A stretch of DNA of 32,000 nt, taken from positions 780,001 to 812,000 of the forward strand of contig JAFGBS010000009.1 in assembly GCA_016933055.1 (NCBI GenBank), given 5' to 3'. Below, in pieces: positions 4,921 to 28,834 of the stretch; position 1 is the stretch's first letter; every line of letters begins with the position of its first letter. This stretch comes from Promethearchaeota archaeon (GTDB lineage: Archaea; Asgardarchaeota; Lokiarchaeia; Sigyniarchaeales; Promethearchaeaceae). The notes beneath the pieces were generated by a model. That model was not told the DNA's origin. It worked only from the letters and a program-made list of their open reading frames with translations, and made no database searches. A program made the translations under genes and the position numbers.

Positions 4921-5274
4921 ATGCCTTCTAAGAAGAATGACAGAATCGAACTTAACTGGAAACCAGAAAAAATTGAAGAGTTAATGACGATAAAAAGTCC
5001 GGATGAAGCGATAATTCTTCTACACGAAGATAAGAAACAAATCATAGAGTTATTGATTTCAAATAATGCAATGACAATCCAACAGTTGTCTAAAGCGACA
5101 CATAAAAATCCAGGAACTATTAAAAGACACCTAAATGATTTAATCGAACACCGATATGTCTATAAAAGTGGACAAAAGCAGTCAGAATACAATGTAAAAA
5201 TGAAGTTTTACTCATGCGTTGCAAAAGAATTTAAAATTGATATTCGTATCCCAAAAGAAAAAAAAATGAATTAA
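4921..5274 (+). CDS. Winged helix-turn-helix transcriptional regulator (ArsR/HTH_20-like)
   Basis: KKQIIELLISNNAMTIQQLSKATHKNPGTIKRHLNDLIEHRYV followed by a beta-wing ending KFYSCVAK. Confidence 0.85.
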   Translation: MPSKKNDRIELNWKPEKIEELMTIKSPDEAIILLHEDKKQIIELLISNNAMTIQQLSKATHKNPGTIKRHLNDLIEHRYVYKSGQKQSEYNVKMKFYSCVAKEFKIDIRIPKEKKMN

Positions 5275-5495
5275 TCTTTTTTTACCGAAGCTAATCGGTA
5301 AAATTTCCCCTTTTTTTCTCCTTAGTACTGTGCGGTCATCTCCCTTTTCCACAAGAATCCATCCAAAATACGATTTTTACATGTTACCATCAAAATTGCT
5401 AACCAAACGCACCGCGTACAGTATAGGTACCCCTTTATACATTTGTCGTATGAAAAAAAATGAAAAGAAATGCGATTAGGTTCAACAAATGTAGA
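5275..5495 (-). mobile_element. 221-bp MITE-like non-autonomous element, copy A (TTAA direct repeats at 5271-5274 and 5496-5499)
   Basis: Reverse complement aligns end to end with 28611-28830 at about 87% identity (hand alignment); similarity stops at TTAA on both sides; imperfect 23-bp TIRs (16/23); no ORF. Strand is relative to copy B. Confidence 0.85.
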
Positions 5496-6641
5496 TTAAT
5501 CATACATTTTCTCAATTTTTACAACTTTTTTACTTAAGGGGACTGATCCATTAAAATACATATGCAGATTATGGTTCAGATTGTGGAAATCCATTTTTTT
5601 GATTTTTTCCGATTGATCCACGCTACTATATGTATTCCAAAAGAGTAGTGTTTCATTATGGAGCGTTTCTCGGTATTTTTTGATAAAATCAATCATTGCA
5701 GAAAGAGTTTTTCCGGTATAGGTAGTTTCCAGTTCCATGTTATCGATCTCCTTAATGAGATCTACAGCATACTTACCCTTATCAGTTACAATCCCATAAG
5801 TCCCGCCAAAATAATTCGTATTTATTTCTAGCCTCTGCTCTAAGGAATTTTCCGAAATTATCGGTATTGTTGAGTCATATTCTCGTAAGTATTGGTAACA
5901 TTTTTTTGCTAAAACTATAGCACGTTTCCGACTTGCAAATTGTTTTGAACTTACTGTAACTCCGATTATTTTCGATTTTAATCCTGCCAGTTCACACCCC
6001 AATAGTAAACCTGCTGTGGTTCCAGAGCTACCAGTTGTGGTGAATATATAATCTGGCTCAGGAAGAATCCCCTCATCAATTTGGTGTTTTAGTTCAAAAG
6101 CTCCATTCACAAATCCTATAGTTCCTATTTTATTACTTCCACCCGCCCAAATTAGATAAGATCGCCAATGAGTTATCATATACCAAATCATTGCCATTGC
6201 TAGACCAATTTGAGTTTTTTTATGAATTATTTTTGCATCATAATATAACTCTAAAAGCAAATTATGTCTTACATGCTCAGTTAATGGTTGATTTTGGAGA
6301 AAGACCACACTTTTTAATCCTAATTGCTTACAGAACATGGAATTAGCAACACAATGATTTGATCCGATTCCCCCCATAGTTAAGATATGCTTTTTCTTAT
6401 TTTTTAGTGCATAACCGAGAAGGAATTCAAACTTACGTGGCTTGTTCCCTCCGTATTCGGGATTTGATTTATCATCTCGTTTGATATAAATTCCATAAAA
6501 ATCAAGTTTCTTTTCTAATCCATTCAATCGATGTACCGGGGTTGGTGCATCAATTAGCGATATCCATGGAATTTTCTGTAATCCGGGATATTGTTGCATG
6601 ATATATGGTAATTCTTTTTCTTGTTTGTTCTCATTCTTCAT
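5496..6641 (-). CDS. PLP-dependent D-cysteine desulfhydrase / ACC deaminase family enzyme
   Basis: PTPVHRL...IKRDD...YGGNKPRKFEF with PLP lysine, GGIGSNH, TTGSSGTTAGL, ETTYTGK. Confidence 0.93.
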   Translation of the reverse strand: MKNENKQEKELPYIMQQYPGLQKIPWISLIDAPTPVHRLNGLEKKLDFYGIYIKRDDKSNPEYGGNKPRKFEFLLGYALKNKKKHILTMGGIGSNHCVANSMFCKQLGLKSVVFLQNQPLTEHVRHNLLLELYYDAKIIHKKTQIGLAMAMIWYMITHWRSYLIWAGGSNKIGTIGFVNGAFELKHQIDEGILPEPDYIFTTTGSSGTTAGLLLGCELAGLKSKIIGVTVSSKQFASRKRAIVLAKKCYQYLREYDSTIPIISENSLEQRLEINTNYFGGTYGIVTDKGKYAVDLIKEIDNMELETTYTGKTLSAMIDFIKKYRETLHNETLLFWNTYSSVDQSEKIKKMDFHNLNHNLHMYFNGSVPLSKKVVKIEKMYD

Positions 6642-27839: not shown

Positions 27840-28610
27840 GTGGTTTTAGGCTTAACAAATGCACAGATCCAAACTTTTGTGATTAATGGTTCAATATTGA
27901 TTTTCATATTGATAATTGGGAGTAGTGTTCTACGAAGAAATCCCAATAGCCGATTGAATCGATCATTTTTCTTATTTTATTTTTTTGTTGCGTTTGGTTT
28001 ATTGATAAATGTGGCATATCGATTGATAAATAAGGAGATATACATGGTTTGGATGAATCGGATTACATTATTCTTTTCCACCTTTGGAATAATATTTCTC
28101 CTCTTTTTTAATATCATCATTTTTCAAAGTGAACAAGTGTTTACGAGGAAGAAACAATGGTTATATACCATATTATGGTTCATTGCTTGTTCGGGCATTC
28201 TCTGGTTAGATTTGGAAAATGGAGTCAAATGGGATTATAATCCTAATAAGCCTGGTATTGATCCACTCTATTTAAATCCCGGGTCTGCAGGGGTCCCAGT
28301 CTACAGTACATTATTCACAGTATATGCGCTCATTCTTGCTCAAGGATTATTTATTATCATCATCATTCTTGTTGCACGAATCATACGAAAATTTGGCGAT
28401 AAAAAATTACGACGAAAATATATCAGTTCCTTTGTTGCGATCATGTTATTTGATTGGATTCTTGTAGGTAACCTGATTAACAACTGGAGTATTGTCCAAG
28501 ATGCATATGCTTTCTCGCCAATGCCATTTAGCACGGTTTTCCTATATACAAGTGTATTAGTCATTCCTGCGGTCTTACTATTGTGGTATGGAATAAGAAA
28601 GAGAGATTAA
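27840..28610 (+). CDS. About 7-TM membrane protein resembling a stand-alone histidine-kinase N-terminal 7TM sensor domain
   Basis: Seven hydrophobic segments, RRNPNSRLNRSFFLF after TM1; no cytoplasmic output domain. Confidence 0.65.
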   Translation: MVLGLTNAQIQTFVINGSILIFILIIGSSVLRRNPNSRLNRSFFLFYFFVAFGLLINVAYRLINKEIYMVWMNRITLFFSTFGIIFLLFFNIIIFQSEQVFTRKKQWLYTILWFIACSGILWLDLENGVKWDYNPNKPGIDPLYLNPGSAGVPVYSTLFTVYALILAQGLFIIIIILVARIIRKFGDKKLRRKYISSFVAIMLFDWILVGNLINNWSIVQDAYAFSPMPFSTVFLYTSVLVIPAVLLLWYGIRKRD

Positions 28611-28830
28611 TCTACATTTGTTGAACCTAATCGCATTTTTTCTCATTTTTTTTCACATGACAGATGTATAAAGGGGTAACTATACTGTACAATGGACGTT
28701 TAGTTAGCAATTCTGATGATTGCATCCAAAAATCGATTTTTGGATGGATTCTAGGGGGAATGGGAGAAGACCGCACAGTACTAAGAAGAAAAAATGGAAA
28801 ATTTTACCGATTAGCTTCGGTAAAAAAAGA
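28611..28830 (+). mobile_element. 220-bp MITE-like non-autonomous element, copy B (TTAA direct repeats at 28607-28610 and 28831-28834)
   Basis: Starts TCTACATTTGTTGAACCTAATCG, ends CCGATTAGCTTCGGTAAAAAAAGA; the first 28 and last 30 nt are identical to the reverse complement of copy A. Confidence 0.85.
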
Positions 28831-28834
28831 TTAA

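Follow-up and report, generated by a model that had tools for sequence, protein, structure and literature searches.

The window analysed here, a 32,000-nucleotide stretch of a Promethearchaeota archaeon genome (G000:C17:780001-812000), carries two copies of a repeat that is very probably a non-coding, non-autonomous miniature inverted-repeat element (MITE) of about 222 bp, duplicating TA and inserted by a transposase supplied in trans. The genome analysed (G000) comprises 3.76 Mb in 36 contigs and is 91% complete. Its sole same-genus relative, the MAG Promethearchaeota archaeon isolate AMARA_1 (G001), is 76% complete and served as congener. Copies A (5275-5495, reverse complement) and B (28611-28830) align end to end over 221 columns without large gaps. 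They share 86.9% identity, and the similarity ends sharply at either border. The first-pass annotation had reported two sharply bordered copies of about 87% identity, with 23-nt ends that match at 16 of 23 positions and CTAATCG beginning 17 nt inside each end, and all of this is correct. TTAA is found on each side of both copies. In the 222-bp reading, with termini ATCT...AGAT, copy A occupies 5274-5496 on the minus strand (right end at 5274, left end at 5496; aligned with copy B and ten further copies) and copy B occupies 28610-28831 on the plus strand. The TA target duplications would lie at 5272-5273 and 5497-5498 for copy A, and at 28608-28609 and 28832-28833 for copy B. Copy A is located between the convergent ORFs 4921-5274 (+) and 5496-6641 (-), whose TAA stops sit inside the flanking TTAAs: the left TA together with the terminal A of the element forms the stop of the first ORF, and the right TA together with the terminal T (5496) that of the second. 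The TA left of copy B is part of the TAA stop of ORF 27840-28610 (+), which again sits inside the flanking TTAA.

Past mobility of the family is shown by four contrasts between filled and empty orthologous sites in G000 and G001. The sites of both window copies are empty in G001, and those of two G001 copies are empty in G000. At the locus of copy A on G001:C68 the aligned parts of the two flanking genes are separated by 39 bp, and the element is wholly absent. Here gene 1 finishes with ...AAT TAA, and gene 2, read from the opposite strand, has its stop in the TTA of that one TTAA. This is the empty site with interlocked stops that had been predicted from the window. At the locus of copy B on G001:C46 we found the same gene end (...RKRD followed by the stop), a single GATTAA and, directly after it, a T-rich stretch that can be aligned to the G000 right flank. 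The G001 copies on C55 and C136 correspond to uninterrupted sequence in G000 (C36:~88285-88421 and C17:~299660, respectively).

BLAST and nhmmer profile searches of G000 revealed nine full copies plus about four contig-end copies, with E-values down to 1e-73, far beyond chance. The total of 12-13 copies in 3.76 Mb is lower than the many copies per genome that had been anticipated. Partial copies are located at the start of C23, the end of C36, the start of C15, the end of C31 and both ends of C34. The congener contains three full copies and three fragments. The proposed non-coding family with inverted repeats and a target duplication is borne out. A solo 29-bp right end was detected at G000:C22:104931 (104931-104959) and another right-end fragment at G001:C28:697-740. 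Among the 40 relatives searched only G001 has matches, the family being absent from the 39 others, and a scan of the GTDB genomes for the element ends likewise matched only AMARA_1. Exact-pattern scans for both ends gave no match in JGI metagenome contigs and IMG/VR, and BLAST against PLSDB plasmids and phage records no match to the element.

The imperfect 24-nt terminal inverted repeats (17/24) are kept in all copies, and one and the same subterminal box is found at equal distance from each end. The element ends begin ATCTACATTTG..., and the left terminus is written ATCTACATTTGT. In copy B, the left repeat (ATCTACATTTGTTGAACCTAATCG) is located at 28610-28633 (+), and over the initial 12 nt it is a variant of the ATCAACATCTAT terminus that the other MITE families have. 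The right repeat at 28808-28831 (-) comprises a GAAnCTAATCG subterminal box, a 9-bp hairpin and an A7 tract. Two T8 tracts (28636-28655, +), invariant T columns in the alignment, follow inward from the left end, and T7 tracts are present at the right end on the opposite strand. The T7-T8 tracts of both ends face inward and are conserved. Oligo-T is an archaeal signal for transcription termination, and these tracts are putative terminators. In the centre of copy B, self reverse matching and the alignment revealed a 24-nt palindrome around AAATCGATTT (28723-28746), which is perfect in this copy and imperfect in most others. An AATCG motif recurs in both subterminal boxes and in the central palindrome; these motifs may represent protein-binding sites. 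A TATA-like TATAAA box is also found within the element. As stated in the first-pass annotation, the termini are better conserved than the middle, with a mean column conservation over 12 copies of 0.95-0.98 at the ends versus 0.78-0.94. The terminal 51 columns are depleted of private substitutions (7 versus 75 in the other 172, p = 0.001). Selection of master copies for their mobility would account for this terminal conservation just as well as host selection.

The insertion sites resemble an A-tract, TA and a T-tract: the 20 bp left of TA are A-rich and the 20 bp right of it T-rich. A GATTAA target, remarked upon earlier, is supported only in part, namely by an enrichment of G three bases before TA (9/16 junctions). 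Of 15 sites, 11 are at a distance of 0-15 bp from an ORF 3' end, without bias in element orientation. The expected share of non-coding TA in such zones is 11.8% (p about 5e-8, based on crude gene calls). Since each element end has an A directly after TA, an element that inserts at the TA of a stop codon (TAA or TAG) restores a TAA, and rebuilt TAA stops are found at three gene ends in the window. We propose that a transposase supplied in trans would cut at the TA dinucleotide and duplicate TA. This enzyme would prefer A-tract/TA/T-tract sequence directly behind stop codons, or insertions would only survive there. Insertion into a stop-codon TA would restore TAA on both sides and the inward oligo-T tracts could substitute a displaced terminator, leaving insertions behind genes nearly neutral. 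The left flanks at C24:27040-27064, C2:309853-309873 and C17:157795-157817 (A-tract, GAT, TA) resemble the right end of the element (A7, GAT, TA). The target may mimic the element end, or insertions may arise beside old end remnants.

A reverse-strand frame of 49-50 codons, odd for AT-rich DNA, is open in the window at 5330-5479 (+) and 28627-28776 (-). Within the family it is open in 7 of 12 copies and interrupted by stops in 5, without frameshifts. Substitutions are spread evenly over its codon positions (63/61/62), giving no coding signal. The frame has no Pfam match, and a profile search of 1.8 billion proteins returned one spurious repeat protein only. A transposase remnant is thus not recognisable in this frame, which lacks both a coding signature and a homologue. 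At the RNA level, the consensus fold consists of a left-end stem, in which the left terminus (1-13) pairs with its own inverted near-copy at 49-60, and the 9-bp hairpin of the right end. A structured RNA was rejected, as the covariation term is 0.08 kcal/mol and compensatory changes occur at 2 of 41 predicted pairs. A search of Rfam 15 at a permissive threshold, a check suggested in the first-pass annotation, yielded only sub-threshold miRNA/snoRNA noise (best 19.7 bits versus gathering scores of 40-99) and no family at its gathering score.

A different possibility is that the repeat is a host-useful module, for instance a terminator acting in both directions or a small-RNA gene, that selection has retained once inserted or that recombination rather than transposition has spread. 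Its placement 0-15 bp behind stop codons, the conserved inward oligo-T tracts at both ends, the internal TATAAA box and the depletion of private changes in the terminal columns would all suit such a role. So would the identity of elements between the two species, which at 85-91% exceeds the 67-74% of the chromosomal flanks. Master-copy selection for mobility explains the conserved ends equally well, however, and such a module is at odds with the missing Rfam match and with almost no covariation. Furthermore, just 12-13 copies face about 3000 genes, the orthologous genes in the sister species do without the element, and inverted repeats together with a TA duplication are a signature of transposition. 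We therefore consider a host module unlikely and prefer the trans-mobilised MITE. The high inter-species identity then requires horizontal transfer or whole-element selection: judged from the sequences, either the family would have crossed between lineages after their split or the whole element would be constrained.

The chromosomal copies in G000 are 71-93% alike and form two subfamilies. The family is probably no longer moving, because even the closest chromosomal copies are only 93% alike. The three G001 copies constitute one clade (support 0.95), are 92.7-93.2% alike and share 90-91% with the G000 copies at 785275 and 381764. A special case is C34 (L046:1-11198), a helicase-encoding contig of 11.2 kb, whose first bases are element positions 138-220 and whose last are positions 1-84, both parts having one orientation. 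Its element halves are identical to the halves at the C31 end and the C15 start. Two arrangements would account for this: a circle carrying one copy, with another copy in the chromosome, or an integrated 11-kb element bounded by two identical direct copies, via homologous recombination through the MITE. The C34 flanks around the insertion contain an 8-bp inverted repeat (TTTGGCGG...CCGCCAAA). G001:C51 shows the same order as C34, a helicase gene followed by a 400-bp stretch (86% DNA identity) and then the repeat. The 400-bp stretch (L046:10690-11114 compared with L044:6449-6850 in G001 C51) is apparently non-coding, and the adjoining helicase-like gene has only 25-47% protein identity. The stretch may be a replication origin or other cis site of a plasmid-like element, and a C34-type element is a possible vehicle of MITE spread.

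That C34 begins and ends inside one copy, with halves identical to those of C31 and C15, and that helicase gene, 400-bp stretch and repeat recur in this order on G001 C51, could also mean that the repeat is a recombination or attachment module of this plasmid-like element, the chromosomal copies being sites of its integration and exit. We regard this as very unlikely. Each chromosomal copy is an entire 220-bp unit rather than a half-site and has inverted ends and TA repeats of its own; the copies differ mutually by 7-25%, and C34 encodes no integrase. A resident MITE copy and an assembly break at the repeat, possibly with homologous recombination between copies, explain C34.

To define the duplicated sequence, 16 left and 17 right junctions were tallied and the duplication was scored in 12 full copies. 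Directly outside TCT...AGA, three positions hardly vary: they read TAA in the left junctions (15, 14 and 16 of 16) and TTA in the right ones (15, 14 and 16 of 17). One base further out the sequence is variable (T in 7/16 left and A in 10/17 right junctions). Both-sided TTAA, taken for a direct repeat typical of the family in the first-pass annotation, is restricted to the two window copies (2/12); the other flank pairs include CTAA/TTAC (twice), ATAA/TTAT, ATAA/TTAA and AGAA/TGAG. The 2 bp outside ATCT...AGAT match in 9 of the 12 full copies (TA/TA in 8, GA/GA in 1). Two of the three copies without a matching 2-bp repeat are among the most diverged. These flanks suggest a 222-bp element ATCT...AGAT with a 2-bp duplication as the consistent reading. 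Ends of the form TAA...TTA without any duplication are disfavoured by the empty site of copy A: in the alignment, gene 1 stops at an identical codon position in the G001 site that lacks the element, and hence the TA predates the insertion. A 3-bp TAA/TTA duplication in the style of PIF/Harbinger was ruled out, as the flanks are inverted and not direct. The window alone could not distinguish TA from TTAA, since both readings predict the same empty site for copies A and B. The least likely explanation of all is a TTAA-specific element with TCT...AGA termini and a 4-bp TTAA duplication, moved by a piggyBac-like or other TTAA-cutting enzyme: as in piggyBac-type transposons, both window copies are TTAA-flanked and both G001 empty sites have one TTAA, and TTAA occurs in 7/16 left and 6/17 right flanks, but at a decay of no more than ~10% per site a true TTAA duplication should persist in most copies, and the genome contains no piggyBac-type domain (a weak test, the model having matched no control genome).

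The termini of the TA-duplicating MITE, initially matched to no familiar IS family, have counterparts in the same genome. G000 harbours larger (300-450 bp) modular MITE families with TA directly outside the terminus ATCAACATCTAT, also written TAATCAACATCTAT. The left end of the 222-bp family is a variant of this terminus and, in its oldest copy (C2:179154), matches ATCAACATCTAT exactly. Counts of the pattern TAATCWACATYTRT are 38 in G000 and 4 in G001, versus 1 for the reversed control in each case, and stay at the background level across 79 further genomes of the order. The larger families resemble the 222-bp family in the TA flank, the ATCWACATYTRT-form terminus, the confinement to the genus and the lack of a transposase, whereas their interior is unrelated (no cross-match in BLAST or nhmmer). 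The 222-bp family is shorter, with another right end, subterminal CTAATCG boxes and fewer copies. A single enzyme lineage probably served all these families, as their termini suggest. It would most likely recognise the ATCWACATYTRT terminus common to them and, judged by the TA duplication, would most likely be a DDE transposase of the IS630/Tc1-mariner type. Positions 1-188 of the window (G000:C17:779823-780188) are the end of a modular MITE copy of ~366 bp with the terminus TAATCAACATCTAT, and another copy of this ~366-bp family is located just beyond the window end (C17:812647-813031).

No transposase for the element is encoded in the window, as had been noted, and profile searches detected none in either assembly. 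Eight Pfam models (DDE_3, DDE_Tnp_4, piggyBac, mariner, TnpB, rve, IS1595 and Y1) gave no match in G000; four of them, run at genus scope, also covered G001. PF13358 (DDE_3, IS630) has no match in either genome of the genus, while five control genomes match, and PF01797 and PF07282 are absent while controls match. PF01359 and the piggyBac models also gave no match, but none in any control genome either, and are therefore weak tests. The ORFs of nine small contigs including C34 (C14 and three other small contigs were left out) encode an integrase, a helicase-like protein, RadA and others, but no transposase. The search for a longer element with the ends of the 222-bp family, recommended in the first-pass annotation as a way to the transposase, found none; ORFs between inward-facing terminus matches are ordinary genes. 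As G000 is 91% and G001 76% complete, the absence of a transposase is not proven. Many accepted MITE families are orphans, so that the missing autonomous partner lowers only the claim of current mobility. A rather improbable extension is that several orphan TA-flanked families with the ATCWACATYTRT terminus were or still are moved by a transposase outside the tested models, either of a new family or encoded on an extrachromosomal element that escaped assembly, for example one of the C34-type helicase plasmid lineage, and that the 222-bp family was shaped for harmlessness by TAA rebuilding and two-way oligo-T terminators.

DDE_Tnp_1 (PF01609) matched two IS elements, one intact (G001:C33) and the other decayed (G000:C8), with ends (CAGTTCCCAATG...) that are unrelated to the MITE. 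The former (L040:1289-2715) is a 1.4-kb element of the IS4/IS5 type with an intact 421-aa DDE_Tnp_1 transposase and 23-bp inverted repeats (CAGTTCCCAATG...). The latter (G000:C8:3190-3495, L041) is a remnant with four stop codons. It adjoins the gene of a 418-aa tyrosine integrase (L047:6134-7390; Phage_integrase, SAM-like and arm-binding domains) on the same 7.7-kb contig.

MITEs with a TA duplication that derive from IS630/Tc1-mariner elements include Sulfolobus SM1, cyanobacterial Nezha, pneumococcal RUP and plant Stowaway. The 222-bp family is like them a short non-coding element with terminal inverted repeats and a 2-bp TA duplication, found at AT-rich, roughly symmetric, intergenic targets and with presence or absence at orthologous sites. 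It differs from them in that the genus has no DDE_3 gene, one copy is flanked by GA/GA, the inverted repeats match at 17/24 positions and the ATCT... termini match no tested family. The transposase not found, the unrelated ends of the only DDE_Tnp_1 elements, the 85-91% identity of elements between species whose chromosomal flanks share 67-74%, the three of 12 copies without a matching 2-bp repeat, the modest match of the inverted repeats and the GA/GA copy, unusual for IS630/Tc1-mariner, count against the preferred explanation. A palindromic element derived from IS200/IS605 was excluded by the inverted repeats, the 2-bp duplication and the absence of PF01797 and PF07282. Terminator-like or promoter-like signals are also carried by Correia-type bacterial repeats. 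The SPRITE repeat (PMC10969869) resembles the family as a small repeat at gene ends with such signals. Unlike SPRITE and Correia repeats, to which it has no sequence relationship, the 222-bp family has archaeal-type oligo-T tracts of putative function.

The archaeal MITEs compiled in a 2024 review come only from Sulfolobus, Halobacterium, Haloquadratum, Desulfurococcus and a few others (PMC10969869). In an archaeal IS survey of 2026, Asgard genomes average 8.5 IS each, and MITEs receive scarcely any mention (PMC13343696). In the searchable literature, we found no paper that combines Asgard archaea with miniature inverted-repeat elements. The 222-bp family is an ordinary kind of element in a little-studied, Loki-type Asgard host. 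Since MITEs are little documented in archaea, a well-delimited Asgard family with proven empty sites is a useful annotation, and the family can serve as a marker for strain and species comparison. Placement at stop-codon TAs together with stop-rebuilding ends shows how insertions can be tolerated in a compact genome. Knowledge of transposition as such is not changed, unless the missing enzyme proves to be new.

In the likely source run, contigs carry the occupied site and none joins the flanks across the element. A second sample, described as 'hot springs metagenome' in its record, has identical flanks with the junctions outside coverage and is silent on polymorphism. The two metatranscriptome runs of the source study contain next to none of the words of the stretch, one of them placing no contig on it, and are silent on expression. 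Many contig ends of G000 (e.g. C2:1-89, the C5 end, C18, C25, C27 and C36:1-87) have 87-bp overlaps, as expected of a k=87 assembly graph. MITE copies account for several contig breaks in this assembly. Indeed, the end of C24 and the start of C9 overlap exactly inside one MITE copy, and the two contigs can be joined.
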